Below, one piece after another: positions 2,065 to 41,045 of a stretch of 64,000 bases of DNA; position 1 is the first letter of the stretch; each line of letters starts with the position of its first letter. Under the pieces are notes generated by a model. That model was not told where the DNA came from and searched no databases. It saw only the letters and a list, made by a program, of their open reading frames with translations. The stretch is from NCBI RefSeq assembly GCF_058153355.1, contig NZ_CM177019.1; one strand, given 5' to 3'. A program made the translations under genes and the position numbers.

Positions 2065-2071
2065 AAACAAA

Positions 2072-2098
2072 AATCCGCCCCGAGAGGCGGATTTTTTA
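2072..2098. terminator. bidirectional rho-independent terminator between convergent opgE and ompX
   Basis: Hairpin AATCCGCCcCGAGAGGCGGATT flanked by A-run and T-run. Confidence 0.7.
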
Positions 2099-2112
2099 TA
2101 TCACCGAAGTGA

Positions 2113-2628: not shown

Positions 2629-2980
2629 AACCACCTCAAATGTGATTCAAATAAGTCCTAAGTTTTAAATATATCAAAAATTAATGGGAAACTCTTCGCG
2701 ATTTGTGATGTCTAACGGGCCATTTCATGTAACAGAACGTTTCCATACGCCGCTATCCATCTAAATTTAAATCACTTTTTCAGAGAACTGCATAAGTATT
2801 ACGCATGTTTTCCCTGTCATTCATCCAGATTATTCCTAATCACCAGACTAATGATTCCATCAATCCTGGCGCATTTTAGTCAAAACGGGGGAAAATTTTT
2901 TCAACAAATGCTCAACCAGCATTGGGTATATCCAGTACACTCCACGCTTTACTTAGGTTTAGATATTTGTGGGAGAAAGG

Positions 2981-3868
2981 ATGCCTGGTTCATTACGTAA
3001 AATGCCGGTCTGGTTACCAATAGTCATATTGCTCGTTGCCATGGCGTCTATTCAGGGTGGAGCCTCGTTAGCTAAGTCACTTTTTCCTCTGGTGGGTGCA
3101 CCGGGTGTCACTGCGCTGCGTCTGGCATTAGGAACGCTGATCCTCATCGCGTTCTTTAAGCCATGGCGACTGCGCTTTGCCAAAGAGCAACGATTACCGC
3201 TGTTGTTTTACGGCGTTTCGCTGGGTGGGATGAATTATCTTTTTTATCTTTCTATTCAAACGGTCCCACTGGGTATTGCGGTGGCGCTTGAGTTCACCGG
3301 ACCACTGGCGGTGGCGCTGTTCTCTTCTCGTCGCCCGGTAGATTTCGTCTGGGTTGTGCTGGCGGTTCTTGGTCTATGGTTCCTGCTACCGCTGGGGCAA
3401 GACGTTTCCCATGTCGATTTAACCGGCTGTGCGCTGGCACTGGGAGCAGGGGCTTGTTGGGCTATTTACATTTTAAGTGGGCAACGCGCAGGAGCGGAAC
3501 ATGGCCCTGCGACGGTGGCAATTGGTTCGTTGATTGCAGCGTTAATTTTCGTGCCAATTGGAGCGCTTCAGGCTGGTGAAGCACTCTGGCACTGGTCGGT
3601 TATTCCATTAGGTCTGGCTGTCGCTATTCTCTCGACCGCTCTGCCTTATTCGCTGGAAATGATTGCCCTCACCCGTTTGCCAACGCGGACATTTGGTACG
3701 CTGATGAGCATGGAACCGGCGCTGGCTGCCGTTTCCGGGATGATTTTCCTCGGAGAAACATTGACACCCATACAGCTGCTGGCGCTCGGCGCTATCATCG
3801 CCGCTTCAATGGGTTCTACGCTGACAGTACGCAAAGAGAGCAAAATAAAAGAATTAGACATTAATTAA
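2981..3868 (+). CDS. rhtA: threonine/homoserine exporter RhtA (DMT/EamA family)
   Basis: 10-TM EamA-type protein in the conserved position; start placed at MPGSLRK inside the 299-aa ORF. Confidence 0.85.
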   Translation: MPGSLRKMPVWLPIVILLVAMASIQGGASLAKSLFPLVGAPGVTALRLALGTLILIAFFKPWRLRFAKEQRLPLLFYGVSLGGMNYLFYLSIQTVPLGIAVALEFTGPLAVALFSSRRPVDFVWVVLAVLGLWFLLPLGQDVSHVDLTGCALALGAGACWAIYILSGQRAGAEHGPATVAIGSLIAALIFVPIGALQAGEALWHWSVIPLGLAVAILSTALPYSLEMIALTRLPTRTFGTLMSMEPALAAVSGMIFLGETLTPIQLLALGAIIAASMGSTLTVRKESKIKELDIN

Positions 3869-3877
3869 ATTTACATT

Positions 3878-3906
3878 TCTGCATGGTTATGCATAACCAT
3901 GCAGAA
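3878..3906. terminator. perfect palindrome hairpin downstream of rhtA
   Basis: CTGCATGGTTATGCATAACCATGCAG inverted repeat immediately after the rhtA stop codon. Confidence 0.6.
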
Positions 3907-4080
3907 TTTCTCGCTACTTTTCCTCCACACCGTCTTTATATATCGAATTATGCAAAAGCATATTTATTCCGAAAATTCCTGGCGAGCCAATAAATAAGAA
4001 TTGTTCTTATCAATATATCTAACTCATTGAATTTTTATTAGTTTTGTTTTTCACGCTTGTTACCACTATTAGTGTGATAG

Positions 4081-4671
<591 letters not shown>

Positions 4672-4711
4672 ATCCATCGCTGATGGTGCAGAAATTTAGT
4701 AAACGATAACA

Positions 4712-4740
4712 GCGGCTTCCTGACAGGAGGCCGTTTTGTT
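4712..4740 (+). terminator. dps rho-independent terminator
   Basis: Hairpin CGGCTTCCTGacaGGAGGCCG followed by TTTTGTTTT. Confidence 0.6.
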
Positions 4741-4901
4741 TTGCAATCCGCCTCAACGCACTTATTTAGTGCATCCATCCGCTGTCCACGACCATCAAAG
4801 TAAATTTTTTGTATCCACATCATCACACAATCGTTACATAAAGATTGTTTTTTCATCAGGTTTTACGCTAAATAATCACTGTGTTGAGTGCACAATTTTA
4901 G

Positions 4902-5022
4902 CGCACCAGTTTGGTGCCCCAGAATGGTGCATCTTCAGGGTATTGCCCTATAAATCGTGCATTACGTTTTTGCCGCATCTCGATAAATCAATGAGTTGCA
5001 AAACTGGCACGATTTTTTCATA
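4902..5022 (+). promoter_or_regulatory. glnHPQ nitrogen-regulated promoter region (NtrC sites plus sigma-54 promoter)
   Basis: GCACCAGTTTGGTGC and AATGGTGCATC at 4902-4932 resemble NtrC half-sites; TGGCACGATTTTTTCAT at 5005-5021 resembles a -24/-12 sigma-54 promoter about 50 bp upstream of glnH. Confidence 0.5.
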
Positions 5023-5057
5023 TGTGAATGTCACGCAGGGGATCGTCCCGTGGATAG

Positions 5058-5819
<762 letters not shown>

Positions 5820-5834
5820 TAATGCTACGCCTGT

Positions 5835-5910
5835 AAAGCGCACTGGCAGTTCCCTCTCCCCTCTGGGGAGAGGATTAGGGTGAGGGGCGCAAACCCGCTC
5901 CGGGGCCATT
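5835..5910. repeat. intergenic GC-rich stem-loop between glnH and glnP
   Basis: Inverted repeat CCTCTCCCCTCTGGGGAGAGG plus flanking palindromic sequence in the glnH-glnP spacer. Confidence 0.4.
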
Positions 5911-5957
5911 AATTACCCTGAATTTGATTATTTACACCACGGTAACAGGAACAACAT

Positions 5958-6617
5958 ATGCAGTTTGACTGGAGTGCCATCTGGCCTGCCATTCCGCTTC
6001 TGATTGAAGGTGCCAAAATGACCCTGTGGATTTCGGTCCTCGGTCTGGCTGGCGGCCTGGTGATCGGATTGCTGGCAGGTTTTGCACGCACCTTCGGTGG
6101 TTGGATATCCAACCACGTCGCGCTGGTCTTTATTGAAGTGATCCGCGGCACACCTATCGTCGTCCAGGTGATGTTTATCTACTTCGCCCTGCCGATGGCG
6201 TTTAACGACTTACGCATCGACCCATTTACTGCGGCGGTGGTCACCATCATGATCAACTCCGGCGCATACATTGCGGAAATCACGCGTGGTGCGGTGCTGT
6301 CTATCCACAAAGGTTTCCGTGAAGCAGGACTGGCTCTCGGCCTTTCACGTTGGGAAACCATTCGCTACGTCATTTTACCGCTGGCACTGCGTCGTATGCT
6401 GCCGCCGCTGGGTAACCAGTGGATCATCAGCATTAAAGACACCTCGCTGTTTATTGTTATCGGCGTGGCGGAACTGACCCGTCAGGGGCAAGAAATTATT
6501 GCCGGTAACTTCCGCGCCCTTGAGATCTGGAGCGCCGTGGCGGTGTTCTATCTGATTATTACCCTGGTGCTGAGCTTTATTCTGCGTCGTCTGGAAAGAA
6601 GGATGAAAATCCTGTGA
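5958..6617 (+). CDS. glnP: glutamine ABC transporter permease GlnP
   Basis: 219-aa polar amino-acid ABC permease; overlaps the glnQ start by 4 nt. Confidence 0.95.
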
Positions 6618-7336
6618 TTGAATTTAAAAACGTCTCCAAGCATTTTGGTCCAACCCAGGTGCTGCACAATATCGATTTGAACATTGCTCAGGGCGAAGTC
6701 GTGGTGATTATCGGGCCGTCCGGTTCCGGTAAATCGACTCTGCTGCGCTGCATCAACAAACTGGAAGAAATCACTTCCGGCGATCTGATTGTCGATGGCC
6801 TGAAGGTTAACGATCCGAAAGTTGACGAGCGCCTGATTCGCCAGGAAGCGGGTATGGTGTTCCAGCAGTTTTACCTCTTCCCGCATCTGACGGCGCTGGA
6901 AAACGTCATGTTTGGCCCGCTACGTGTACGTGGCGCGAACAAAGAAGACGCTGAAAAACTGGCGCGTGAACTGCTGGCGAAAGTCGGTCTGGCAGAACGT
7001 GCACATCACTACCCTTCCGAACTTTCTGGTGGTCAGCAGCAGCGTGTGGCGATTGCCCGCGCGCTGGCGGTGAAGCCGAAAATGATGCTATTTGATGAAC
7101 CAACTTCCGCTCTTGACCCGGAACTGCGCCATGAAGTGCTGAAGGTTATGCAGGATCTGGCTGAAGAAGGCATGACGATGGTGATCGTGACCCACGAAAT
7201 CGGTTTTGCCGAGAAAGTCGCTTCGCGTCTTATCTTCATTGATAAAGGCCGAATTGCAGAAGATGGCGATCCGCAGGCGTTGATCAAGAACCCGCCGAGC
7301 CAGCGCTTGCAGGAATTTTTGCAGCACGTCTCTTAA
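6614..7336 (+). CDS. glnQ: glutamine ABC transporter ATP-binding protein GlnQ
   Basis: Walker [10 protein letters not shown], signature LSGGQQQR and Walker [13 protein letters not shown] present. Confidence 0.95.
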
Positions 7337-7425
7337 CTTCTCAGCCTCCCTTTCCCCCGAAAGGGAGGCACACCAGATTCCTCTCATTTAAAATCGCCCC
7401 TCCCCCAGCATCTATACTTATCTTT

Positions 7426-9678
7426 TTGCTCTGTTTTCTCACTGGAGGAGTCATGCGGTGGATCCTGTTCATCCTCTTCTGCCTGCTGGGCGCACCTGCC
7501 CACGCGGTATCCATACCCGGCGTTACAACCACAACGACAACGGACTCAACGACTGAACCGGCCCCGGAACCGGATATCGAACAAAAAAAAGCGGCCTATG
7601 GCGCACTGGCGGATGTGCTGGATAATGACACCTCGCGTAAAGAGTTGATCGACCAGTTGCGCACCGTCGCCGCTACGCCTCCTGCGGAACCCGTACCGAA
7701 GATCGTGCCGCCGACGCTGGTTGAAGAGCAAACCGTGCTGCAAAAGGTCACCGAAGTCAGCCGCCATTATGGTGAAGCCCTTTCCGCCCGCTTCGGACAA
7801 CTTTATCGCAATATCACCGGCTCCCCGCATAAGCCGTTTAATCCACAAACCTTCAGCAATGCGTTGACCCATTTTTCAATGTTAGCGGTATTAGTGTTTG
7901 GTTTTTACTGGCTGATTCGCCTGTGCGCACTTCCGCTGTATCGCAAAATGGGCCAGTGGGCGCGGCAAAAAAATCGTGAGCGCAGTAACTGGTTGCAGCT
8001 TCCGGCGATGATTATCGGGGCGTTTATTATCGACCTGCTGTTACTGGCACTGACATTATTTGTCGGCCAGGTCTTAAGCGACAACCTGAATGCGGGCAGT
8101 CGCACCATCGCTTTCCAACAAAGTTTGTTTCTCAACGCCTTTGCCCTGATTGAATTTTTCAAAGCCGTACTACGCCTGATTTTTTGCCCCAACGTGGCGG
8201 AGCTGCGCCCGTTCACGATTCAGGACGAAAGCGCCCGTTACTGGAGTCGTCGCCTGAGCTGGTTAAGCAGCCTGATTGGGTATGGTCTGATTGTGGCTGT
8301 GCCGATTATCTCTAATCAGGTGAATGTGCAAATCGGTGCGCTAGCGAACGTCATCATTATGCTGTGCATGACGGTCTGGGCGTTGTACCTGATCTTTCGT
8401 AATAAAAAAGAGATTACCCAGCATTTGCTCAACTTCGCGGAACACTCGCTGGCCTTTTTCAGCCTGTTTATTCGCGCTTTTGCGCTGGTGTGGCACTGGT
8501 TGGCAAGCGCCTATTTTATCGTGCTGTTTTTCTTTTCGTTGTTCGATCCGGGCAACAGCCTGAAATTTATGATGGGTGCAACGGTACGCAGCCTGGCGAT
8601 TATTGGTATCGCCGCGTTTGTTTCCGGTATGTTTTCCCGCTGGCTGGCGAAAACCATCACTCTCTCGCCACATACTCAGCGTAATTATCCGGAACTGCAA
8701 AAACGGCTGAACGGCTGGCTTTCGGCGGCACTGAAAACGGCGCGTATTCTTACCGTCTGCGTGGCGGTGATGTTGCTGTTGAGCGCATGGGGATTGTTCG
8801 ATTTTTGGAACTGGCTGCAAAACGGCGCGGGGCAGAAAACCGTAGATATCCTGATCCGTATCGCACTCATCCTTTTCTTCTCGGCGGTTGGCTGGACGGT
8901 GCTTGCCAGTTTGATCGAAAACCGACTGGCTTCGGATATTCATGGCCGCCCGCTACCGAGCGCCCGCACGCGTACTCTGCTGACGCTGTTTCGCAACGCG
9001 CTGGCGGTGATTATCAGTACCATCACCATCATGATTGTCTTGTCAGAAATCGGCGTCAATATCGCGCCATTGCTGGCAGGTGCCGGGGCATTAGGGCTGG
9101 CTATCTCGTTTGGTTCGCAAACGCTGGTGAAAGATATCATCACCGGCGTGTTTATACAGTTTGAAAACGGCATGAATACCGGTGATTTGGTGACTATCGG
9201 GCCGTTGACCGGCACTGTGGAACGGATGTCAATTCGATCGGTGGGCGTGCGTCAGGATACCGGGGCGTATCACATCATTCCGTGGTCTTCGATTACCACC
9301 TTTGCTAACTTTGTCCGCGGTATTGGTTCGGTAGTGGCAAATTATGATGTTGATCGCCATGAAGATGCTGATAAAGCCAATCAGGCACTGAAAGATGCGG
9401 TAGCGGAATTGATGGCAAACGAAGAAATTCGCGGGTTGATTATCGGTGAACCGAACTTTGCCGGGATTGTCGGCTTAAGCAATACCGCATTTACACTGCG
9501 AGTTTCGTTCACTACGCTGCCACTCAAACAGTGGACGGTACGCTTTGCCCTCGACAGCCAGGTGAAAAAACATTTCGACCTGGCGGGCGTTCGCGCGCCA
9601 GTGCAGACTTATCAGGTGCTGCCTGCTCCGGGCGCGACCCCGGCTGAACCGTTGCCGCCGGGGGAACCAACGCTTTAA
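7426..9678 (+). CDS. ybiO: MscS-family mechanosensitive channel YbiO
   Basis: Signal peptide, multi-TM region and C-terminal MscS domain; the true start may be the internal Met at 7453. Confidence 0.85.
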
Positions 9679-10601
9679 CGCTGGCGATTGACAAAACGGC
9701 GGCGCTGCTCGTCGTTCATAAAGGTCCAGGCAATAAAGCGACTCTGCTTTTGCCCCTGGGCCATCTCTTTTTTAACCACTTTCACCGCGCCCACGTCCGT
9801 CAGAGCACGATACAACGGCGGTAAGTTTTCGCCACGAGATACCAGCGAGGTAAACCACATCACCTGCTTCGCGAAGCCTTTGCTCTCTTCAATCATCTTT
9901 TTGATAAAAGCCACTTCACCGCCTTCACACCACAGCTCCTGTTGCTGACCACCAAAGTTCAGTGCATCGTCTTTGTTCAGCCCCAGGTTACGCCGTTTAC
10001 GCTCACTACCCGCCCGTGCCGCAGCGGCGGAATCGTGGAATGGCGGGTTACACAAGGTCGCGTCGTATTGCTCGTTTTTGTGGATAATACCGTTAAAAAT
10101 CGCCCCGCTCTCTTTCTGCCGACGCAGACGAATGGCGCGGTTAAGCCCCGGATTAGCACTGATGATCGCCTGCGCACTGCTTAACGCCTGGCTGCTGGTG
10201 TCACTACCGGTAAAACGCCAGCCATATTCATGTACGCCAATCAGCGGATAAATACAGTTCGCACCAACGCCGATATCCAGAATGCTGGCATTAGCTGGAA
10301 TTGTTCCGCTTGCTTCAGCCAGTAAATCGGCAAGGTGATGAATATAATCCGCCCGGCCCGGTACTGGCGGGCAGAGAAAACCGTCCGGGATATCCCAGTT
10401 CGCTACGGCGTAAAAATGGGCCAGCAACGCCTTATTGAGCGCCTTCACCGCCAGCGGATTGGCAAAGTCTACGCTTTGCTCCCCGGCAGGTGTAAGCGTG
10501 AGGAATTGCCTGAGTTCAGAATTGACCTGACAAAGCGTGGCAAGATCGTAGCGGCTGTGATGACGGTTGCGCGGATGCAACCCCGGTTTCTGGGCGGACA
10601 T
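9675..10601 (-). CDS. rlmF: 23S rRNA m6A1618 methyltransferase RlmF
   Basis: SAM-dependent methyltransferase in the conserved position; start set at [10 protein letters not shown] inside the 335-aa ORF. Confidence 0.85.
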
Positions 10602-10876
10602 AGCATTCTCCTTTAAGCAGCGGCGTAAGATACCCGCATAACGCGACAGGGTAAATATCTGGCTGCGTTTATCATTCCCCAAAACCTTAACATGGCTATG
10701 GTTTACGGCAATTCATCATAAAAATCAGCATCATGCATGTCATTGATTTGTCTTATTTTGTAAAAATATATCGTTCAAAAAACAAGCACATCTCTGTCAA
10801 TTTTTTGCGTCATTTTCATCGTCCAGGCGACCTACACTTATCAGGCACTACCCGTTGTATTTATGAGGATGTCATT

Positions 10877-11137
10877 ATGAAAAAGTGCCTCACACTACTG
10901 ATTGCCACCGTCCTGAGCGGAATCTCTCTCACGGCTTATGCCGCGCAACCGATGAGTAACCTGGACAGCGGTCAGCTACGGCCCGCCGGTACCGTTTCGG
11001 CAACTGGCGCATCAAACCTAAGCGATCTGGAGGATAAACTGGCAGAAAAAGCGCGCGAACAAGGCGCGAAAGGTTATGTCATTAATTCCGCGGGCGGAAA
11101 TGACCAGATGTTCGGTACTGCAACCATCTACAAATAA
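10877..11137 (+). CDS. mcbA: DUF1471 (YdgH/BhsA/McbA family) periplasmic protein McbA
   Basis: 86-aa product with signal peptide and conserved C-terminal GYVINSAGG...TATIYK motif; start set at MKKCLTLL inside the 134-aa ORF. Confidence 0.8.
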   Translation: MKKCLTLLIATVLSGISLTAYAAQPMSNLDSGQLRPAGTVSATGASNLSDLEDKLAEKAREQGAKGYVINSAGGNDQMFGTATIYK

Positions 11138-11272
11138 CCCCACCAACGTAACTGCATTCGCCTCTGGATGCAGTTTTCGCCTGTTTTGTAATCAAAAAAC
11201 ATCAAATATGAACGCAATGTAAATAAATGTATTTCTTTTTCGCGCAATGGGTGATAGAAAATCGCGCCAAGT

Positions 11273-11297
11273 GATAATGCTTATCAAAATTATTATC
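11273..11297 (+). promoter_or_regulatory. Fur box in the fiu promoter
   Basis: GATAATGCTTATCAAAATTATTATC resembles the GATAATGATAATCATTATC Fur consensus about 100 bp upstream of fiu. Confidence 0.6.
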
Positions 11298-11707
11298 ACT
11301 TGCACGAACGCTATCACGGGATTAACAGTGGCATCGCATCCGCAGAGAGGCTTTCTCGTGACAGTGAAAATTTCAACATATAAGAAAAAGTTACCTGCAA
11401 AATGGAAAACAATCGCAATTTCCCTGCCAGACAATTTCATTCGCTCACGTTCTTTGCCGGTCTTTGTATTGGCATCACGCCTGTGGCACAGGCACTCGCT
11501 GCCGAAGGGCAAGCTAACGCGGATGACACGCTGGTTGTCGAAGCATCAACGCCTTCGCTTTACGCGCCACAACAATCTGCCGATCCGAAATTCTCGCGTC
11601 CGGTAGCAGATACTACCCGCACGATGACGGTGATTTCTGAACAAGTGATTAAAGATCAGGGTGCAACCAACCTTACCGATGCGCTCAAAAACGTCGGCAC
11701 ATTGCCG

Positions 11708-13133
11708 TAATGCCGATCAGTTAAGGATCAGTTGACCGATCCAGTGGCTGTGTAAGAATCCGGAAACGCTCACTTGTTTCCGGATTTTTTTATGCACATT
11801 GGACAGGCTCTTGATCTGGTATCCCGTTACGATTCTCTGCGTAACCCACTGACTTCTCTGGGGGATTACCTCGACCCCGAACTCATCTCTCGTTGCCTTG
11901 CCGAATCAGGTACTGTAACGCTACGCAAGCGCCGTCTTCCCCTCGAAATGATGGTCTGGTGTATTGTTGGCATGGCGCTTGAGCGTAAAGAACCTCTTCA
12001 CCAGATTGTGAATCGCCTGGACATCATGCTGCCGGGCAATCGCCCCTTCGTTGCCCCCAGTGCCGTTATTCAGGCCCGCCAGCGCCTGGGAAGTGAGGCT
12101 GTCCGCCGCGTGTTCACGAAAACAGCGCAGCTCTGGCATAACGCCACGCCGCATCCGCACTGGTGCGGCCTGACCCTGCTGGCCATCGATGGTGTGTTCT
12201 GGCGCACACCGGATACACCAGAGAACGATGCAGCCTTCCCCCGCCAGACACATGCCGGGAACCCGGCGCTCTACCCGCAGGTCAAAATGGTCTGCCAGAT
12301 GGAACTGACCAGCCATCTGCTGACGGCTGCAGCCTTCGGCACGATGAAGAACAGCGAAAATGAGCTTGCTGAGCAACTTATAGAACAAACCGGCGATAAC
12401 ACTCTGACGTTAATGGATAAAGGTTATTACTCACTGGGACTGTTAAATGCCTGGAGCCTGGCGGGAGAACACCGCCACTGGATGATACCTCTCAGAAAGG
12501 GAGCGCAATATGAAGAGATCAGAAAACTGGGTAAAGGCGATCATCTGGTGAAGCTGAAAACCAGCCCGCAGGCACGAAAAAAGTGGCCGGGACTGGGAAA
12601 TGAAGTGACAGCCCGCCTGCTGACCGTGACGCGCAAAGGAAAAGTCTGCCATCTGCTGACGTCGATGACGGACGCCATGCGCTTCCCCGGAGGAGAAATG
12701 GCGGATCTGTACAGTCATCGCTGGGAAATCGAACTGGGATACAGGGAGATAAAACAGACGATGCAACTGAGCAGGCTGACGCTGAGAAGTAAAAAGCCGG
12801 AGCTTGTGGAGCAAGAGCTGTGGGGTGTCTTACTGGCTTATAATCTGGTGAGATATCAGATGATTAAAATGGCGGAACATCTGAAAGGTTACTGGCCGAA
12901 TCAACTGAGTTTCTCAGAATCATGCGGAATGGTGATGAGAATGCTGATGACATTGCAGGGCGCTTCACCGGGACGTATACCGGAGCTGATGCGCGATCTT
13001 GCAAGTATGGGACAACTTGTGAAATTACCGACAAGAAGGGAAAGGGCCTTCCCGAGAGTGGTAAAGGAGAGGCCCTGGAAATACCCCACAGCCCCGAAAA
13101 AGAGCCAGTCAGTTGCTTAACTGACTGGCATTA
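11708..13133 (+). mobile_element. insertion sequence IS4 (1426 bp)
   Basis: Imperfect terminal inverted repeats TAATGCCGATCAGTTAAG and CTTAACTGACTGGCATTA bound a single transposase ORF; the length equals the canonical IS4 length. Confidence 0.9.
11792..13120 (+). CDS. insG: IS4 transposase InsG (442 aa)
   Basis: Translation [27 protein letters not shown]... recognised as IS4 transposase (DDE family). Confidence 0.9.
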
Positions 13134-32878: not shown

Positions 32879-34116
32879 AATGTAGCTGGCGCGAAGGCAA
32901 TAAGATCCAGTTGCTGGAAAACGGCGAGCAATATTATCCCGCGGTGTTTAAGGCGATTGGCGAGGCACAAGAACGCATCATTCTTGAAACGTTTATCTGG
33001 TTTGAGGATGACGTCGGCAAACAGCTGCATGCGGTACTACTGGCAGCAGCGCAACGCGGGGTAAAAGCGGAAGTCTTGCTGGATGGCTACGGTTCGCCGG
33101 ATCTCAGCGATGATTTTGTCAATGAACTGACGGCAGCTGGCGTGGTGTTCCGCTACTACGATCCCCGCCCTCGCCTTTTTGGTATGCGCACCAATGTGTT
33201 TCGCCGGATGCATCGCAAAATTGTGGTGATCGACGCACGTATCGCCTTTATTGGTGGGCTGAATTACTCCGCCGAGCATATGTCCAGCTACGGTCCAGAG
33301 GCTAAACAGGATTACGCAGTGCGCCTTGAAGGGCCGATTGTCGAAGATATTCTCCAGTTTGAACTGGAAAACCTGCCAGGACACAGCGCAGCACGACGCT
33401 GGTGGCGACGTCATCACAAAGCGGAAGAAAACCGCCAGCCGGGAGAAGCGCAGGTATTATTGGTTTGGCGCGATAACGAAGAACATCGTGATGATATCGA
33501 ACGCCACTATCTGAAAATGCTCACTCAGGCGCGTCGGGAAGTGATTATCGCCAACGCCTACTTCTTTCCTGGCTATCGATTTTTGCACGCCTTACGCAAA
33601 GCGGCACGGCGCGGGGTGCGGATCAAGCTGATCATTCAGGGCGAACCGGATATGCCCATTGTCAGAGTCGGCGCGCGTTTACTGTACAACTATCTGGTTA
33701 AAGGCGGCGTTCAGGTTTTTGAGTACCGCCGCCGCCCGCTCCACGGCAAAGTAGCATTGATGGACGATCACTGGGCGACAGTAGGGTCCAGTAATCTCGA
33801 TCCGCTCAGTTTGTCGCTAAATCTCGAAGCAAACGTCATCATTCACGATCGTCATTTTAACCAGACGCTACGCGATAATCTGAACGGCATCATCGCCGCC
33901 GACTGTCAACAAGTGGATGAATCCATGCTGCCGAAACGCACCTGGTGGAACCTGACCAAAAGCGTGCTGGCATTCCATTTTTTGCGCCACTTCCCGGCGC
34001 TAGTGGGCTGGCTTCCGGCGCACACGCCGCGTCTGGCGCAAGTTGATCCCCCCGCACAACCGACAATGGAAACTCAGGATCGGATAGAAACTGAAAATAC
34101 GGGGGTAAAACCCTGA
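32875..34116 (+). CDS. clsB: cardiolipin synthase B (phospholipase D family)
   Basis: Two HxK(x)4D motifs (HRKIVVID and HGKVALMDD). Confidence 0.9.
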
Positions 34117-35072
34117 TGAGTAAATCACGCCCGCGCTGGCGCTTAGCAAAGAAGATCCTCACCTGGCTGTTTTTTATCGCAGTGATTGTGTTGCTGGTGA
34201 TCTACGCCAAAAAGGTAGACTGGGAAGAGGTCTGGAAGGTTATCCGCGATTACAATCGCGTTGCGTTGCTCAGTGCGATTGGGCTGGTGGTCGTCAGCTA
34301 TCTGATATATGGCTGCTACGACCTGCTCGCCCGTTTCTACTGCGGTCACAAACTGGCGAAGCGCCAGGTGATGCTGGTGTCGTTTATCTGCTACGCCTTC
34401 AATCTGACGCTCAGTACCTGGGTCGGCGGCATTGGTATGCGCTATCGTTTGTACTCCCGGCTAGGGTTACCGGGCAGCACTATTACGCGGATTTTCTCGC
34501 TCAGTATTACCACCAACTGGCTGGGCTATATTTTGCTGGCCGGGATTATCTTTACCGCAGGCGTGGTGGAGCTGCCGGATCACTGGTATGTCGATCAAAC
34601 TACGCTGCGTATTCTCGGCATTGGCTTACTGCTGATTATCGCGGTTTATTTGTGGTTTTGCGCTTTCGCGAAGCACCGCCATATGACCATCAAAGGGCAA
34701 AAGCTGGTGCTGCCTTCATGGAAATTCGCCCTCGCCCAGATGCTGATTTCCAGCGTTAACTGGATGGTAATGGGAGCGATTATCTGGCTGTTGCTGGGTC
34801 AAAACGTGAACTATTTCTTTGTACTGGGCGTATTACTGGTAAGCAGTATTGCCGGGGTAATTGTGCATATTCCGGCGGGAATTGGTGTACTGGAAGCGGT
34901 GTTTATCGCGCTACTGGCTGGGGAGCATACCTCCAAAGGCACAATTATCGCCGCCCTGCTCGCTTACCGTGTGCTGTATTACTTTATCCCGCTGCTGCTG
35001 GCGCTGATCTGTTACCTGTTGCTGGAAAGCCAGGCGAAGAAGCTACGAGCGAAAAATGAAGCGGTAATGTGA
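34116..35072 (+). CDS. ybhN: inner membrane protein YbhN (lysylphosphatidylglycerol-synthase TM-region family)
   Basis: 318-aa multi-TM protein, translationally coupled to clsB. Confidence 0.85.
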   Translation: MSKSRPRWRLAKKILTWLFFIAVIVLLVIYAKKVDWEEVWKVIRDYNRVALLSAIGLVVVSYLIYGCYDLLARFYCGHKLAKRQVMLVSFICYAFNLTLSTWVGGIGMRYRLYSRLGLPGSTITRIFSLSITTNWLGYILLAGIIFTAGVVELPDHWYVDQTTLRILGIGLLLIIAVYLWFCAFAKHRHMTIKGQKLVLPSWKFALAQMLISSVNWMVMGAIIWLLLGQNVNYFFVLGVLLVSSIAGVIVHIPAGIGVLEAVFIALLAGEHTSKGTIIAALLAYRVLYYFIPLLLALICYLLLESQAKKLRAKNEAVM

Positions 35073-35075
35073 AGT

Positions 35076-35339
35076 TCAGTTAAGTTCTTTTGGTTTAAGT
35101 TCGGGATGCTGTTTATAGATGGGGTTCATGATATCGATTAACATGCGCCCCATAATTTCCCCGACGGCGGAACGATAAATATTAAGCTCAGATTCATCGC
35201 AAGCTTGCTGAACATATAATACTGACGCATCTAATTGAGCACCAATATTGAGCATTAATGCGCTGATATCTGCTGCCAGAGTCTTATCTTTGAACATTTT
35301 ATAAACCTTTTCAATTTCTAAACATAAAAGATACTGCAT
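35076..35339 (-). CDS. hypothetical 87-aa protein, overlapping the 122-aa ORF by 29 nt (possibly one frameshifted gene)
   Basis: ORF in the same AT-rich insert; its start overlaps the end of the upstream ORF in a different frame. Confidence 0.35.
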   Translation of the reverse strand: MQYLLCLEIEKVYKMFKDKTLAADISALMLNIGAQLDASVLYVQQACDESELNIYRSAVGEIMGRMLIDIMNPIYKQHPELKPKELN

Positions 35340-35679
35340 GTTCCATTTTATTACCTACGGGATAATTATCTTTTATTGCATATGTAAAATCACTTGTTTT
35401 GGTTATTAAGTTTTTTATAGCATCATCAAGATACTCAGGAACTAATGATTCAATATTTTCAAGATCACAACCAAGATCAATTATCTCTATTAGCTCTTTA
35501 TCACAATCATTTTTGTGTAAAAGCCTGGAAATAAAAGGTCTGAAAACTAGTAGTTCAGATTCATCTATAGTTATCGTGCCTTCTTTCAAGGAATGTAACA
35601 CTCCTGAAAGCAGTATAGCCATAAATTTATCCATATATTTATTATCGATGGTACAAACTAACTGCATGATATTCTCCAC
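35311..35679 (-). CDS. hypothetical acidic 122-aa protein in an AT-rich insert
   Basis: ORF inside a ~0.65-kb AT-rich segment between ybhN and ybhM; no recognisable domain. Confidence 0.4.
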   Translation of the reverse strand: MENIMQLVCTIDNKYMDKFMAILLSGVLHSLKEGTITIDESELLVFRPFISRLLHKNDCDKELIEIIDLGCDLENIESLVPEYLDDAIKNLITKTSDFTYAIKDNYPVGNKMEHAVSFMFRN

Positions 35680-35725
35680 TATTGTATTTCAGATACTACA
35701 TTTCTAAACGTAAGTCGAAAGTGCG

Positions 35726-36439
35726 TTAAATATGAAACCGCGTATGCCTTTGCCAGACAAGCGTTATCGCTATTGCTGCAAGAATCCCAAAGAAGCTGAT
35801 AAAATAGTAATAGAGTGTTAATGCACCTGTAACAGCGCAACGAACCGGACTCCACAACTCTTCGCTATGGCATTTTCCTGCCAGTTCAAGGAGCTTATTT
35901 CGTCCATGCGAGATAATGCCTGACCATAAGACAATCATTAAGCAACTTATTACCCAAACAGGCCGTTCACTCATTAATGCGGTATTTACGCTGATCACCA
36001 GAGTCAACCCTGTCAACGTCATCATAATGATGAAACGGTGAGAACCAGGATCAACATTAAATAATAAACCGGCCTGCATACTGATTAAAAACATCGCGCC
36101 CGCAGTGCTGAACACAAGGATAATGGCAGATACAGGAACTAAACTAGCAACGACAATCGCCACCAAAGAGATTAAAAACAGATACATTACGCCTGCGATG
36201 GCGGCATTTATCTTGTTGATATCCTTACTTAAACCATACATACAAAGTAATAATAATCCTATGGCGACATACATTTGCGGTGAATCATATTTTGTTGCCG
36301 TAATTTCGAGATGCTTAGCTCCCCAGGCCAGTCCTGCGGTTGCCACCAAACCGACAGCGGTAATGAGCCATATGCCGTTTAATATCCTGGCCTCGTACTG
36401 AAAATCATTAGTTATGTTTTTTGATGAGTACGATTTCAT
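35726..36439 (-). CDS. ybhM: BAX inhibitor-1 (BI-1/YccA) family inner membrane protein, 237 aa
   Basis: 7-TM protein; its length matches my recollection of K-12 YbhM. Assignment relative to the adjacent paralogue is uncertain. Confidence 0.6.
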   Translation of the reverse strand: MKSYSSKNITNDFQYEARILNGIWLITAVGLVATAGLAWGAKHLEITATKYDSPQMYVAIGLLLLCMYGLSKDINKINAAIAGVMYLFLISLVAIVVASLVPVSAIILVFSTAGAMFLISMQAGLLFNVDPGSHRFIIMMTLTGLTLVISVNTALMSERPVWVISCLMIVLWSGIISHGRNKLLELAGKCHSEELWSPVRCAVTGALTLYYYFISFFGILAAIAITLVWQRHTRFHI

Positions 36440-36507
36440 TATTTTTATATCCTTAAGTTGAATATCAATATCTATTGCAATTAACGCAAAAAACTCATCA
36501 ATTCACG

Positions 36508-37248
36508 CTACCACACTAAACCATTAATAAAGTCAAGAACCGTTACAGCAAGTCTAAAAAGGACGCTTAGGATACAGAAATAGAGTGTTATTGCCCCTGC
36601 AACAATACAGCGAAGAACACCTGAAAATTCAGAGTTGTCGGCAACACGGATCAAATCTTCCAGTGTTGTTGCTTCACAGGCAGCCGTAACGCCCCAGATA
36701 ACGACAGTCAAAATACTCGCTAACCATACGGAAAAACTGCTGGTAAGAATCAGGTTAACAACAAAAGCAATACTCAAACCACAGAAGATATATAAACATA
36801 ACTGTCTAACTGGTGGGATAGCCCTATTAATACAACAGCAAATCAGCGCCATTGTGGCAAACATCCCTCCCGTAATTCCCATTACCGTCACTATGCTTGA
36901 AAAGGTAAAAAGTCTGGAGAAGAGAAAGCCATTAAGTAGGATTATTAGCAGATAGACCAGACATGCGCCTGATACCTCGAGCCTTTTCAGGGCATCGTTT
37001 AACCAGAAACCAATTATTATCAGCGCAGATAAAGCGAAGACAAACGCGCCTGGAGATTCTAGTGAAGCAACCCAATGCAAGTGCTGAAATATCCAGGCAC
37101 AGCCTGCCGTAGCCCATACTCCAGCAGCTGTTAACCACCAAATGAGGAACAGCATTTTGCTGAGCGAAGCGCTTTTTTGCTGTAATTGAGTAGCAGTGGA
37201 TCGTCTGTTCAAATGCGTTATCTGCCCCTGAAATTGCGTAGTGGACAT
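36508..37248 (-). CDS. second BI-1-family inner membrane protein (246 aa), divergent tandem paralogue
   Basis: 7-TM protein with conserved blocks shared with the 237-aa ORF (e.g. LxxIWxLTAxGxxATAGxAW) but well below half identity by eye. Confidence 0.55.
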   Translation of the reverse strand: MSTTQFQGQITHLNRRSTATQLQQKSASLSKMLFLIWWLTAAGVWATAGCAWIFQHLHWVASLESPGAFVFALSALIIIGFWLNDALKRLEVSGACLVYLLIILLNGFLFSRLFTFSSIVTVMGITGGMFATMALICCCINRAIPPVRQLCLYIFCGLSIAFVVNLILTSSFSVWLASILTVVIWGVTAACEATTLEDLIRVADNSEFSGVLRCIVAGAITLYFCILSVLFRLAVTVLDFINGLVW

Positions 37249-37321
37249 AGTCTGGCATTTGCGGCGATTCAGTTCTCATGTAAATGAGCGGAATAGTCTT
37301 TATAAAATCCGAAAAAAAATC

Positions 37322-37352
37322 CCGACACATGGCCGGGATATTGATGGTGAAA
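37322..37352 (-). terminator. ybhL rho-independent terminator
   Basis: On the minus strand, hairpin CCCGGCCATGTGTCGGG followed by ATTTTTTTT directly after the ybhL stop. Confidence 0.6.
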
Positions 37353-37357
37353 AAGAA

Positions 37358-38062
37358 TTAACGGCGGTTGCCGAAGATCCTCAACAACATCAGGAACAGG
37401 TTGATGAAGTCCAGATATAAGGTTAACGCGCCAAGAATGGAATATTTGCGCAGGTTTGACGTGTCGCGGGTATCAATCTGCTCACCCATATTTTTCAATT
37501 TCTGAGTGTCATATGCCGTCAATCCGACAAAGACAATCACGCCGATGTAGGTGACTGCCCACATCAATGCTTCGCTTTTCAGCCAGAAGTTGACCAGCGA
37601 TGCCAGCACAATGCCGATTAACGCCATAAACAGCATATTGCCAAAGCCGCTTAGATCACGTTTGGTGGTGTAACCGTACAGGCTCATTGCGCCGAACATC
37701 CCGGCAGTAACGACGAAAGTACTGGCAATCGAGGCGGCGGTATAGACAATGAAAATACTGGAAAGCGTAAGACCCGTCAGCGCCGAATAAAGCATAAAGA
37801 GCATCGTCGTTACACCTGCGCTCAACTTTTGAATCATCGCTGATAACACAATAACCAATGCTAATTGCGCGATGATCAGACCGATTAAAAAGACACGGTT
37901 AGTGAACAACAGCTCCATCACGGCCGCGGAATTAGCCGCATACCAGGCAACAAATGCTGTCAGCAACAAGCCAACGGTCATCCAGCCATAGACTTGCGCC
38001 ATATAAGTTTGCAAGCCAGCCCGGGGTTGTACAATTGAATCAGAACGTGGGAATCTGTCCAT
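37358..38062 (-). CDS. ybhL: BI-1-family inner membrane protein YbhL
   Basis: 234-aa 7-TM protein MDRFPRSDSIVQPRAGLQTYMAQVYGWM... in the conserved position next to moaE. Confidence 0.9.
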   Translation of the reverse strand: MDRFPRSDSIVQPRAGLQTYMAQVYGWMTVGLLLTAFVAWYAANSAAVMELLFTNRVFLIGLIIAQLALVIVLSAMIQKLSAGVTTMLFMLYSALTGLTLSSIFIVYTAASIASTFVVTAGMFGAMSLYGYTTKRDLSGFGNMLFMALIGIVLASLVNFWLKSEALMWAVTYIGVIVFVGLTAYDTQKLKNMGEQIDTRDTSNLRKYSILGALTLYLDFINLFLMLLRIFGNRR

Positions 38063-38197
38063 GACGATCTCCTGAAGATATAAGGAATATCTTAAGGATA
38101 CTGCAAATGATGAGGCTGTGCATCGACGCAGCGTAAACGCATATACTGAGCGGTGAAATTGCCGGACGCAGCGGTGCCTTATCCGGCTAACAAAAAA

Positions 38198-38650
38198 CTA
38201 CCAGCGTTTTGCTGCCTGCTGATCGCTCTCCCGGGCTTCAACCCAGCGGTCGCCTTCCGGCGTGGCTTCGCGCTTCCAGAACGGTGCGCGGGTTTTGAGA
38301 TAGTCCATAATAAACTGCCCGGCTTCAAACGCACTGCTGCGATGCGCACTGGTGACACCGACAAAAACGATTTCATCGCCCGGCCATAATTCCCCGATGC
38401 GGTGAATCACAGTGACGCGCCCCAGCGGCCAGCGGTTACGCGCTTCATCGACAATTTCTGCCAGTGCTTTTTCAGTCATCCCCGGATAGTGTTCGAGGGT
38501 TAATGCTTTGACGCTGTCGCCCAGGTTATGGTTGCGCACCTTACCGGTAAAGGTGACTACCGCACCGTCTTCGTCACGCTCAGCCAGCCACGGGTACTCT
38601 TCTCCTACACTGAACGGCTGCGGGCCGACAACAATTTTGGTTTCTGCCAT
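38198..38650 (-). CDS. moaE: molybdopterin synthase catalytic subunit MoaE
   Basis: 150-aa ORF, last gene of the moaABCDE operon. Confidence 0.95.
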   Translation of the reverse strand: MAETKIVVGPQPFSVGEEYPWLAERDEDGAVVTFTGKVRNHNLGDSVKALTLEHYPGMTEKALAEIVDEARNRWPLGRVTVIHRIGELWPGDEIVFVGVTSAHRSSAFEAGQFIMDYLKTRAPFWKREATPEGDRWVEARESDQQAAKRW

Positions 38651-38651
38651 T

Positions 38652-38897
38652 TTAACCTCCGGTCACCGGCGGGAAGAAAGCCACTTCGTCGCCGTCAGTC
38701 AGCGGATGGTCAAAACTCACCAGCGTCTGGTTGACGGCAGCCAGCAATTTGCCATCTTCCAGCGCCAGCGCCCAGCGATCGCTCTGCGCAGCCAGATGTT
38801 GGCGTAACGCTTCAACGGTTGGGAAATCCGCAGCCACTTCGCTTGCATCTGTTCCCACCAACTCGCGCACCTGGGCGAAAAAAAGAACTTTAATCAT
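38652..38897 (-). CDS. moaD: molybdopterin synthase sulfur-carrier subunit MoaD (81 aa)
   Basis: [15 protein letters not shown]... ending in the conserved C-terminal GG; start set inside the 102-aa ORF. Confidence 0.9.
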
Positions 38898-39375
38898 CCG
38901 CTTCCACCTTAAAGTCACCTGACTTGCCGCCGCTCTTCGCCAGCAAACGTACCGGACCAATTACCATATCTTTTTGCACCGCTTTGCACATGTCATAAAT
39001 GGTCAGCGCCGCCACCGAGGCCGCGGTTAACGCTTCCATTTCAACGCCGGTTTTCCCGGTCAGGCGGCATAAGGTTTCTATACGCACCCGATTGTGCTCC
39101 GGCTCGGCCTGCAAATTGACTTCAACTTTACTGAGCATCAGCGGATGACAAAGCGGGATCAAATCCCATGTGCGTTTTGCTGCCTGAATACCGGCAATAC
39201 GCGCAGTGGCAAATACGTCGCCTTTGTGGTGGCGACCATCAATGATCATCGCCAGCGTCTCGCTGCGCATGGTGACAAAGGCTTCGGCGCGCGCTTCACG
39301 CACGGTTTCCGCTTTGGCGGAAACATCCACCATGTGCGCTTCGCCAGCGGCGTTGATATGAGTCAGTTGCAACAT
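38890..39375 (-). CDS. moaC: cyclic pyranopterin monophosphate synthase accessory protein MoaC
   Basis: 161-aa ORF in the operon position. Confidence 0.95.
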
Positions 39376-39377
39376 AC

Positions 39378-39890
39378 TTATTTCTTCAAATGTGGATGGA
39401 AATTACACGGACGCGTACGGGCATCCAGCTGCGGTGCGATGATATTTTCCCAGGCGGTACGGCACGCTTTGGTCGAACCCGGCATGGCGAAAATCAGCGT
39501 TTTGTTAGCGACGCCCGCTACCGCACGAGATTGCAACGTTGAGGTGCCAATCTCTTCGAACGACAACATACGGAACACTTCACCAAAACCTTCAACTTCA
39601 CGGTCGAACAGCGGCAGCAGTGCTTCAGGTGCCTGATCGCCTTCGGTCAGACCAGTACCACCCGTAATCAACACCACTTGTACATCGTCGCTGGCGATCC
39701 ACGCAGATACCTGAGCGCGAATGGCATAGCGGTTTTCTTTCACAATGGCTTTATCGACAACGTGATGGCCCGCGTCCTGCGCCGAGTCGCGCAGATAGTG
39801 ACCGGAGGTATCGTCTTCTTCACCGCGACGATTAGAAACCGTAAGAATAGCAATACGGGTCGGGATAAATTCAGTGCTTACCTGACTCAT
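39378..39890 (-). CDS. moaB: molybdenum cofactor biosynthesis protein MoaB
   Basis: 170-aa MogA/MoaB-fold ORF. Confidence 0.95.
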
Positions 39891-39911
39891 CTGATCTCTC
39901 CTTTTGACGTT

Positions 39912-40901
39912 TTAGCCGCCAATGTACGATAAGTTTTGCGTAATACCGGTGTTGTTTTGATGCAGGAAATGGGTCTGTTTCTTCTCCCGCAGCGCCGCTG
40001 AAATACGCGCTTCCAGCGCCTGTTGCTGGGTATCGTCTTCCAGCAGATCGCGCAGGTTAACGCCGCCTTCACCGAACAGGCAGAGATGGAGTTTACCAAT
40101 GGAGGAGACGCGCAGGCGGTTGCAAGTGGCGCAGAAGTCTTTTTCATACGGCATGATAAGGCCAATCTCTCCGGCGTAATCCGGATGACAAAAGACTTGC
40201 GCGGGACCGTCGCTGCGTTGACGTAATTGGTGGATCCAGCCGCGACGCAGTAACTCGTCACGCAGAACCTGACCAGAGATGTGATGCTTACGGAAGAGCT
40301 CGCTGCCCTCGCCCGTTTCCATCAGTTCGATGAAACGCAGCTGGATGGGGCGATGCTGGATCCAGTTCAGAAAGGTGTCGAGTTGGTGATGATTAACATC
40401 ACGCATCAGCACGGTATTGACTTTGACCTTCTCAAAACCGGCCTCAAATGCAGCATCGATCCCTGCCATGACCTGATTGAATTTATCCTGTCCGGTAATA
40501 GCATGAAACTGGCGAGCGTCGAGGCTATCGACACTCACGTTGATACCAGTAAGACCAGCATCACGCCAGTTCGCTACATCTCGTTCCAGACGGTAACCAT
40601 TGGTGGTGACCGCAATCTGGCGGATAGCGTCGTTTTCTCGCACAGCGGCGATGATATCGGTAAAGTCGCGACGCAAAGACGGCTCTCCGCCCGTCAGACG
40701 GACTTTTTCGGTGCCCAGACTGGCGAAGGCGCGCGTAACCCGGCGAATTTCATCGACGGTCAGAAAGCCTTTATTGGTGACGCCGCTCGGTTTGTAGCCA
40801 TCCGGCAGGCAGTAGGTGCAACGGAAGTTGCACACATCGGTAATCGACAGGCGCAAGTAGTAAAACTTACGCGCAAATGCATCAGTCAGTTGTGAAGCCA
40901 T
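39912..40901 (-). CDS. moaA: GTP 3',8-cyclase MoaA (radical SAM), 329 aa
   Basis: CNFRCTYC radical-SAM motif near the N-terminus; start set at [22 protein letters not shown] inside the 356-aa ORF. Confidence 0.95.
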
Positions 40902-41045
40902 GTACACCTTTCCAGATACGGGAGGCGAAATCATTTCTTCCTTCGCCCTGGTGGCAATCTTTGTAAGCATTGTCACGGCCAAAGCACCGTATCAGTTGAC
41001 CCAGGTGCAGAGGCTAGAGTGTTTAGTGGTTAAGCCGATACTAGC
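40902..41045 (-). promoter_or_regulatory. moaA 5' leader; expected position of the molybdenum-cofactor (Moco) riboswitch
   Basis: Established knowledge that the E. coli moaABCDE leader carries a Moco riboswitch; the structure was not verified here. Confidence 0.45.

Follow-up and report, generated by a model that had tools for sequence, protein, structure and literature searches.

ybhM and an accessory BI-1 family paralogue in the variable stretch between ybhL and ybhN

In a 64,000-nucleotide stretch of DNA (NCBI RefSeq assembly GCF_058153355.1, contig NZ_CM177019.1; hereafter the window), the gene ybhL is followed downstream by two adjacent ORFs of 237 aa and 246 aa, both on the minus strand, exactly as the first-pass annotation had described them and as they stand in the ORF list. 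That annotation assumed a K-12 locus with ybhL and ybhM alone, and took one of the two ORFs to be probably extra or a lineage-specific duplication. Which of the two is ybhM, where does the other come from, and what could such proteins do?

Both ORFs had been attributed, like ybhL, to the BI-1 family, and the three products indeed score above the gathering score of the Pfam profile PF01027 Bax1-I (34.1 bits; profile length 207). YbhL, encoded by the canonical and conserved BI-1 gene of the locus (37358..38062, minus strand, 234 aa), reaches 212 bits (E 1e-62) and is 100% identical in amino acids to K-12 YbhL. The 237-aa product obtains 67.8 bits (E 1.5e-18) over profile positions 3-205 of 207, and the 246-aa product 52.8 bits (E 5.6e-14) over positions 5-203 of 207.

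On sequence grounds, the 237-aa ORF (35726..36439, minus strand, from an ATG) is ybhM: it shares 90% aa identity and an equal length with K-12 YbhM (b0787) and occupies the same position between ybhL and ybhN. It is preceded by a ribosome-binding site, AAGGA, 9-13 nt upstream of the start, and its product aligns over its whole length with BI-1 relatives. The K-12 locus comprises only ybhL and ybhM, with a 204-bp spacer between them. This picture of K-12 was thus right, a three-gene arrangement being absent there, and one gene of the window is therefore extra relative to K-12. This is the 246-aa ORF (36508..37248, minus strand, from the ATG at 37248), of which K-12 has no copy and which we call below the extra gene.

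As judged from related copies, the product of the extra gene is more likely 234 aa long, from a TTG at window position 37212. The common E. coli allele carries a TAA at codon 5 of the 246-aa frame and is started by PGAP at the TTG matching position 37212, giving 234 aa, and relatives from other genera start near this position too. No clear ribosome-binding site was found before either candidate start (37248 or 37212); Met32 is a further candidate. In RefSeq, the Escherichia gene at the same position bears the name "Bax inhibitor-1 family protein" (WP_001299026.1 in MB165, WP_235841532.1 in 2017-02-2CC) and its product is 86-97% identical in amino acids to the window copy; the uncertainty of the start codon explains why it is annotated with 215, 234 or 246 aa.

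The extra gene is present in 749 of the 5,426 complete E. coli genomes (about 14%), SE11 among them, 748 of these carriers covering at least 80% of its length. These E. coli copies fall in a narrow band, 737 genomes being at 90-95% identity, and at 91.4-91.8% among the matches listed. Orthologues of the protein are 75% identical in E. albertii, 83% in cryptic-clade Escherichia and 86-88% in E. coli (75-96% overall), and include a "MULTISPECIES [Escherichia]" RefSeq protein. Of the earlier proposal, the part that made the gene extra with regard to K-12 thus stands, whereas its being lineage-specific does not, given its occurrence in E. coli and in other Escherichia. K-12 lacks the gene, yet about one E. 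coli genome in seven and other Escherichia carry it under an existing annotation; it is hence an ordinary accessory gene, already annotated. As stated, the finding matters little, E. coli having many other small variable regions like this locus.

These two genes lie in a variable stretch of low GC (35073..37320; 39.4%, the flanking genes having 52-57%), delimited by GC and strain comparison, which runs from ybhN to the ybhL terminator and whose gene content varies among the Escherichia strains compared. Its upstream edge is ybhL, directly followed by a terminator-like hairpin with a T-run (37319..37339, minus strand) that was found by a consensus scan: an 8-bp stem with 5 GC pairs, then TTTTTTT, kept in K-12, MB165 and 2017-02-2CC. 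As ybhL possesses its own terminator-like hairpin, the extra gene and ybhM probably form a separate transcription unit. Beyond ybhM come a DUF3969 family gene (35311..35667, minus strand, 118 aa from ATG; Pfam PF13108, 56.9 bits, and PGAP annotation) and a small soluble ORF without family match (35076..35297, minus strand, 73 aa from ATG; the ORF list makes it 87 aa), the last gene before ybhN (34116..35072, plus strand). The latter, a convergent core gene with 98% aa identity to K-12 YbhN, closes the stretch. No RNA family of Rfam matches the stretch at E <= 0.1.

Could the extra gene have arisen in this lineage by a recent tandem duplication of ybhM or ybhL? The two ORFs belong to the same family, lie adjacent on the same strand and have similar lengths, as such a duplication would leave them. 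However, the first-pass annotation had noticed shared blocks within a high divergence that did not look recent, and our comparisons agree with it. By BLASTP, the extra protein is 30% identical to YbhM over 200 aa (E 7e-21; 23-30% across methods), and YbhM and the extra protein are respectively 25% and 23% identical to YbhL. In a neighbour-joining tree, the YbhM-like clade obtains 100% bootstrap; within it, YbhM and a third paralogue are sisters (84%) and the extra gene forms a clade of its own (100%), its nearest relative outside Escherichia being a Kluyvera gene which, at 39%, is closer to it than E. coli YbhM. With orthologues throughout the genus and in the 749 E. coli genomes as well, a recent duplication is scarcely credible; the identity of 23-30% and the tree rule it out.

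An exhaustive phmmer search against 1.84 billion representatives returned 13 clusters for the YbhM-like branch at E <= 1e-10, whose named members are all Enterobacteriaceae. As far as sequence comparison goes, the branch that comprises YbhM and the extra protein is very small and confined to this family of bacteria.

Within Escherichia, one to three YbhM-like genes stand just after ybhL. The fullest array seen reads ybhL, extra gene, ybhM, third paralogue, DUF3969 gene, 73-aa ORF and ybhN; the window holds all of these members except the third paralogue, and K-12 holds ybhM alone. The third paralogue was found in 2 of the 5,426 complete E. coli genomes. Four BI-1 family genes in tandem occur in L013/L014, and on contig L015 three YbhM-like genes alternate with small soluble ORFs. 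In E. albertii a remnant of ybhM is accompanied by the third paralogue and the DUF3969 gene. The gene ybhM itself is matched in 5,399 of the 5,426 genomes, of which 4,793 cover 80% of it or more, so that about 11% of genomes hold less than 80% of it; it is interrupted by an internal stop in 042, by a frameshift in 2017-02-2CC and by IS1 or IS5 insertions elsewhere. F9792 has no ybhM and SCPM-O-B-8794 lacks the whole ybhL-ybhN stretch.

We propose that the array would probably be ancestral to the genus Escherichia and would now be wearing away through deletions, IS insertions and inactivating point changes, the extra gene being an old paralogue, probably lost from most E. coli and from K-12 among them. 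Since arrays with up to four BI-1 genes exist at the level of the genus, the label "extra" would reverse the likely direction of change, and K-12 would represent a reduced state at this locus. We have good confidence in this account of identity and evolution, in which the 237-aa ORF is ybhM, the 246-aa ORF an old accessory paralogue and the locus an eroding array.

On the other hand, the stretch could be a foreign insertion, the extra gene and perhaps ybhM having been transferred horizontally, in which case the K-12 state would be nearer to the ancestral one. Such an event would agree with the GC3 of the stretch, 0.20-0.44 against 0.53-0.67 in the flanking genes. Moreover, among 47 Enterobacterales species surveyed that retain ybhN, 40 have ybhL abutting it without any YbhM-like gene between them, the junction bears unrelated cargo in other genera, and YbhM-like genes are found at further loci in Salmonella and Superficieibacter. 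The K-12 spacer may be read in the same way: by blastn-short and global alignment it matches the extra-gene region solely in the terminator and just upstream of ybhM, and for its remaining 115 bp or so no resemblance to the extra gene could be detected, which means that no deletion scar is left there. Against this, the divergence of the extra gene (75%, 83%, then 86-88%) tracks the order of the Escherichia species, namely E. albertii, the cryptic clade and E. coli; its dS with regard to the E. coli alleles is 0.16, just as in the flanking genes; and the boundaries of the stretch show no meaningful flanking repeats, no integrase and no tRNA. An old acquisition, before the genus diversified, fits both views. 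Given the genus-wide orthologues and a dS like that of the flanks, ancestral presence followed by loss is the better reading of the extra gene, and the foreign insertion is unlikely, although it keeps some weight. The direction of change at the locus, loss or gain, is not proven, and a single introgression could also give the narrow identity band of the E. coli copies.

The two genes differ from their neighbours in rate. For ybhM dN/dS is 0.23-0.52 and for the extra gene 0.40-0.43, against 0.00-0.085 for the flanking clsB, ybhN, ybhL and moaBCE (0-0.03 for ybhL and 0.01-0.05 for ybhN); dS is similar across ybhM, the extra gene and the flanking genes. The YbhM-like branch thus evolves fast, and would do so under a much weaker constraint than ybhL. 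A dN/dS of 0.4 is compatible with relaxed constraint and also with a mixture of purifying and diversifying selection. One could go further and regard both ORFs as decaying relics, effectively without function, for which the raised dN/dS, the frequent inactivation of ybhM by stops, frameshifts and IS insertions, the extra gene's want of a clear ribosome-binding site and the loss of functional aspartates described below would speak. But both ORFs are intact in the window, the extra gene is nearly always well covered in its carriers, dN/dS, at 0.2-0.5, stays clearly below 1, and the extra protein gives a confident AF2 model. We therefore judge decay to this point to be rather improbable.

This AF2 model (pLDDT 92.6) has seven long predicted helices, at residues 3-56, 66-86, 92-113, 116-140, 146-168, 172-204 and 209-245, and YbhM-like proteins are predicted to be seven-helix inner-membrane proteins. 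A parallel can be drawn with YetJ from Bacillus subtilis (PDB 4PGR), the bacterial BI-1/TMBIM homologue of known structure. YetJ is described as a pH-sensitive Ca2+ leak channel, and a conserved pair of aspartates in TM6 and TM7 acts as the pH sensor and gate of the BI-1 channel. The sequence identity is about 16% and the structural match weak, and the pair, D171 and D195 in YetJ, is intact there and gone from YbhM and the extra protein. At these two positions of the alignment, YbhL keeps both aspartates (in "AYDTQ" and "LYLDFIN"), whereas the extra protein shows E/C and YbhM G/Y instead; E/C and E/G stand there in the copies from Salmonella, and E/S in the one from Kluyvera. Because the pair that gates canonical BI-1 channels is lost, YbhM-like proteins are probably not pH-gated Ca2+ or cation leak channels. 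The BI-1 fold would be kept in YbhM and the extra protein, and a canonical channel mechanism is doubtful.

Another relative of known role is YccA of E. coli, likewise of the BI-1 family, which serves the FtsH protease both as a substrate and as a modulator. It belongs to the same superfamily, and relatives bear the label "FtsH-binding integral membrane protein" in some sources. Neither ORF, though, matches the NCBIfam equivalog for YccA (NF007765) at E <= 0.1, and YbhL obtains just 23 bits for a cut-off of 353; a literature search on ybhL together with yccA found nothing. For a narrow, fast-evolving branch devoid of the aspartate pair, the transfer of an "FtsH-binding" or "Ca2+ leak" function from the family name is unjustified.

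What, then, could be the benefit of such proteins? Much less certainly, we infer that they would be dispensable, poorly expressed and silenced by H-NS, with a protective role under some conditions; that they would protect against toxins is speculation. The broken or missing copies of ybhM speak for the first of these points, and the low GC and GC3 for silencing; in K-12, the ybhL-ybhM spacer is reported to contain an H-NS site as well as an RpoD promoter (PMC3946193). Our literature search returned no expression or phenotype reports for ybhM or the extra gene.

A possible lead comes from the ybhL/ybhN junction, which appears as an integration hot spot where toxin-, immunity- or stress-type cargo recurs in different genera; this recurrence offers a testable lead to the function of ybhM. 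On this basis, YbhM-like proteins could confer immunity or protection against membrane-targeting toxins (T6SS, CDI or bacteriocin), the stretch being an orphan immunity island. Their copy number, from 0 to 4, their patchy taxonomic distribution, their raised dN/dS and low GC would suit this role, and the mixture of YbhM-like genes with small soluble ORFs in L015 as well. In addition, the stretch of E. coli 042 encodes an immunity protein of the SUKH-4 family (27.2 bits in Pfam, and so named by PGAP), and the ybhL/ybhN junction of Enterobacter sp. BIGb0383 is occupied by a PLD-domain protein and three tandem Sel1/DUF6396 lipoproteins, laid out as are a T6SS phospholipase effector and the immunity genes that go with it. 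At a second locus of Salmonella, a YbhM-like gene and two membrane partners are found repeatedly, near a TsiV-family gene and Sel1 proteins, and the Superficieibacter homologue lies about 3 kb upstream of vgrG. We give little weight to this last vgrG, since the 864-aa neighbour has no family match and by eye looks more like a secreted hydrolase than like an evident effector.

Several points argue against such an immunity role, for which the support is indirect, coming from gene neighbours in other genomes. There is no toxin gene in or beside the stretch 35073-37320 of the window, no immunity-family match in Pfam, PADLOC or PHROGs, no family assignment for the neighbours in Salmonella, Superficieibacter and Pseudocitrobacter, and no link between BI-1 proteins and immunity in our literature search. 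The co-locations could simply mirror a shared integration hot spot, and dN/dS remains below 1. We regard this reading as distinctly improbable, and it would be a long shot to see in these genes a fast-evolving class of inner-membrane immunity proteins with a BI-1 fold, arranged in variable arrays at ybhL/ybhN alongside DUF3969 and SUKH-4 and directed against the pore-forming or lipid-targeting toxins of competitors. A defence or phage origin was also considered and rejected, PADLOC and PHROGs having returned nothing relevant for the BI-1 ORFs, for the DUF3969 gene and the 73-aa ORF, or for the partner proteins in Salmonella.

The two rarer low-GC neighbours of ybhM, absent from the first-pass annotation, remain to be described. 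The 73-aa ORF has no significant match in Pfam, NCBIfam, PADLOC, PHROGs or PDB, and a structure search found no solved relatives for it or for the DUF3969 protein, on whose family a literature search found nothing. In the ORF list, the DUF3969 gene begins earlier, with a GTG at position 35679, and encodes 122 aa; its GC is 29% and its GC3 20%. One homologue in the search with these two proteins bears a weak and uninformative Fic annotation. Their homologues are confined to Escherichia and Shigella; the 73-aa ORF figures as a hypothetical protein in the annotations of 2017-02-2CC, F9792, 042 and PT62, and the segment carrying both genes is present in 28 of the 5,426 complete E. coli genomes.

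The region corresponds to the moa-ybhL-ybhM-ybhN-clsB neighbourhood of Escherichia coli K-12 in reversed orientation. On the minus strand and in transcription order, the genes considered here begin with moaE (38198-38650), followed by ybhL (37358-38062, 234 aa), a terminator-like hairpin with a T-run (37339-37319), a 246-aa ORF (36508-37248), a 237-aa ORF (35726-36439), a DUF3969 gene (35311-35667, 118 aa, 29% GC) and a small, very AT-rich ORF (35076-35297) encoding a soluble protein of 73 aa without family match. All are convergent with ybhN (34116-35072, plus strand), next to which lies clsB, also on the plus strand. YbhL and the proteins of 246 and 237 aa scored above the gathering score of Pfam Bax1-I (212, 52.8 and 67.8 bits, respectively), which places the latter two in the BI-1/TMBIM family by sequence; the NCBIfam YccA model matched neither of them. 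The first-pass annotation had described two highly diverged BI-1-family ORFs beside ybhL, and this was borne out at the coordinates given: the pair shares 30% identity (E 7e-21), and each member is 23-25% identical to YbhL.

Judging from its 90% identity to K-12 YbhM, at equal length and equal position, the 237-aa ORF is ybhM. The 246-aa ORF, called below the extra gene, has no counterpart in K-12, where the ybhM-ybhL spacer measures 204 bp. RefSeq names it 'Bax inhibitor-1 family protein' in the genomes that carry it, and it is an already annotated accessory paralogue within a small variable region. Its translation probably does not begin at the ATG at 37248. Indeed, the common E. coli allele has a TAA at codon 5 of the 246-aa frame, PGAP annotates this allele as 234 aa from a TTG that corresponds to 37212 of the window, and the relatives from other genera start at about the equivalent of 37212; other annotation pipelines give 215 aa. 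A clear Shine-Dalgarno was found at neither candidate start (37248 or 37212).

The variable DNA between ybhN and the hairpin (35073-37320) has a GC content of 39.4%, and the GC3 of its genes is 0.20-0.44 versus 0.53-0.67 in the flanking genes. In K-12, genomic SELEX lists the ybhL-ybhM spacer as containing both an RpoD promoter and a site for H-NS (PMC3946193); the low GC together with this H-NS site is consistent with silencing of AT-rich DNA. At the boundaries of the stretch we found neither repeats nor an integrase nor an RNA family match. Pairwise Nei-Gojobori comparison of the window with seven Escherichia loci gave dN/dS values of 0.00-0.085 for clsB, ybhN, ybhL, moaB, moaC and moaE, 0.23-0.52 for ybhM, 0.40-0.43 for the extra gene, 0.24-0.41 for the DUF3969 gene and 0.13-0.50 for the 73-aa ORF. 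Since the dS of the stretch genes falls in the same range as that of the flanks, the excess amino-acid divergence reflects weaker or partly diversifying selection and not older alleles.

Among 5,426 complete E. coli genomes, the extra gene occurs in 749 (13.8%), with a coverage of at least 80% in 748; its nucleotide identity to the window copy is 90-95% in 737 genomes and 95-99% in 12. ybhM is found in 5,399, with a coverage of at least 80% in just 4,793, and its inactivation is frequent: an internal stop interrupts it in strain 042, its frame is shifted in 2017-02-2CC, and insertion sequences have entered it in several strains (IS1) and in RR1/HB101 (IS5; PMC5379014). Strain F9792 lacks ybhM and SCPM-O-B-8794 the entire stretch. 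The segment with the DUF3969 gene, whose homologues were found only in Escherichia and Shigella, E. albertii included, and the 73-aa ORF is present in only 28 genomes (23 at a coverage of at least 80%), a third YbhM-like paralogue of 232 aa in only two, and the whole 35000-37400 arrangement, at a coverage of at least 80%, in 19.

The window itself appears to derive from a divergent Escherichia lineage, resembling the cryptic clades, and not from mainstream E. coli, because over its core segments (2000-12000 and 37358-42000) none of the 5,426 genomes exceeds 97.6-98.3% identity, the dS of the flanking genes versus K-12 is about 0.2 and the loci nearest to it carry the same stretch. As for the extra gene, the E. 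coli copies are nearly uniform, so that they could stem from a single introgression. However, amino-acid identity to the window copy rises from about 75% in E. albertii to 83% in a cryptic clade and 86-88% in E. coli, in line with the order of the Escherichia species, and its dS of 0.16 versus the E. coli allele is like that of the flanking genes. On these grounds, it is more likely that the gene was present in the Escherichia ancestor and was later lost in most E. coli, although the K-12 ybhL-ybhM spacer holds no remnant of it, which counts against ancestral presence and loss.

The extra protein served as query in an exhaustive phmmer search against 1.84 billion cluster representatives, which retrieved 106 proteins at E <= 1e-3 and just 13 at E <= 1e-10. 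The named members of these close clusters are without exception Enterobacteriaceae: Escherichia/Shigella, Salmonella (two clusters), Kluyvera georgiana, Superficieibacter, Pseudocitrobacter and Phytobacter. In a neighbor-joining tree (200 bootstraps), all YbhM-like members fall into a single clade (100%), in which YbhM is sister to the third paralogue (84%); the extra gene has a clade to itself (100%), with a weak link to the gene of Kluyvera. YbhM-like genes mostly lie immediately 3' of ybhL, with one such gene in each of Kluyvera, Salmonella, Pseudocitrobacter and Phytobacter. The fullest form of the array is seen in two cryptic-clade Escherichia loci (L013 and L014, 3642-7299), where ybhL, the extra gene, ybhM and the 232-aa paralogue (234, 246, 237 and 232 aa) are followed by the DUF3969 gene, the 73-aa ORF and ybhN. 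In E. albertii NBRC 107761 (L021, 11063-12724), the place of the extra gene is taken by a sulfatase-domain membrane protein of 553 aa that resembles a phosphoethanolamine transferase; ybhM is reduced to an 81-aa C-terminal remnant, and the third paralogue and DUF3969 gene are present. Other E. albertii strains carry an extra-gene orthologue (75% amino-acid identity). Finally, on a 7-kb Logan contig (SRR18370191; L015, 1-7227), ybhL is followed by eleven ORFs on the same strand, in which three divergent YbhM-like genes are interleaved with small soluble ORFs without family match, and over the length of the array the GC content drops from 55% to about 30%.

For the extra protein, AF2 with an alignment of 68 sequences gave a confident model (pLDDT 92.6, pTM 0.86) that contains seven long helices. 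In BsYetJ, D171 and D195 form the pH-sensing latch of the channel. These residues are kept in YbhL, but the extra protein has E/C and YbhM has G/Y in their place, and the alignment shows that the pair is missing from nearly all YbhM-like proteins; the 232-aa paralogue, unlike its relatives, retains the second aspartate. With the pair gone, the extra protein and YbhM are unlikely to act as canonical pH-gated Ca2+ leak channels. Our best estimate is that both would be inner-membrane proteins that are dispensable, poorly expressed and protective under certain conditions.

We also surveyed the ybhL|ybhN junction in 80 species-representative loci anchored on YbhL. ybhN is kept in 47, and in 40 of these it lies within 350 bp of ybhL, as in Citrobacter, Enterobacter, Klebsiella, Lelliottia, Buttiauxella, Pantoea and Erwinia. 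A YbhM-like gene occupies the junction in only three surveyed loci (E. albertii, a Pseudocitrobacter MAG and Phytobacter massiliensis). The junction is a hot spot whose cargo differs between genera. That of Enterobacter sp. BIGb0383 (L048, 10763-15553) holds a 611-aa PLD-domain protein, then three tandem genes of ~328 aa with Sel1/DUF6396 domains and apparent lipoprotein signal sequences, a layout reminiscent of a T6SS phospholipase effector accompanied by an enlarged set of immunity genes. In E. coli 042 (L005, 2431-4354), a gene of the SUKH-4 immunity family and an ORF of 152 aa without family match are inserted between the DUF3969 gene and the 73-aa ORF. In Salmonella enterica, a module made of a YbhM-like gene and two ORFs for multi-pass membrane proteins (about 200 and 185 aa), neither with a family match, is found at two chromosomal loci (L009, 6001-7908; L011, 6001-7900), one 3' of ybhL and the other downstream of guaA, near Sel1, DUF1266, DjlB_C and, in L012, TsiV genes. 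In Superficieibacter electus (L100, 8001-13275), the YbhM-like gene lies away from ybhL, adjoining an 864-aa protein without family match and ~3 kb upstream of a vgrG (Phage_GPD) gene at the contig end. It is such co-location in other genomes that suggests a narrower role for the extra protein and YbhM, as immunity proteins against membrane-targeting toxins, a reading that we consider improbable.

Two other junctions deserve mention. That of Siccibacter holds an 80-aa and 118-aa pair that is toxin-antitoxin-like judging by size and sequence alone, and that of Pluralibacter holds 488-aa and 226-aa ORFs which, by eye, are catalase-like and lipocalin-like.
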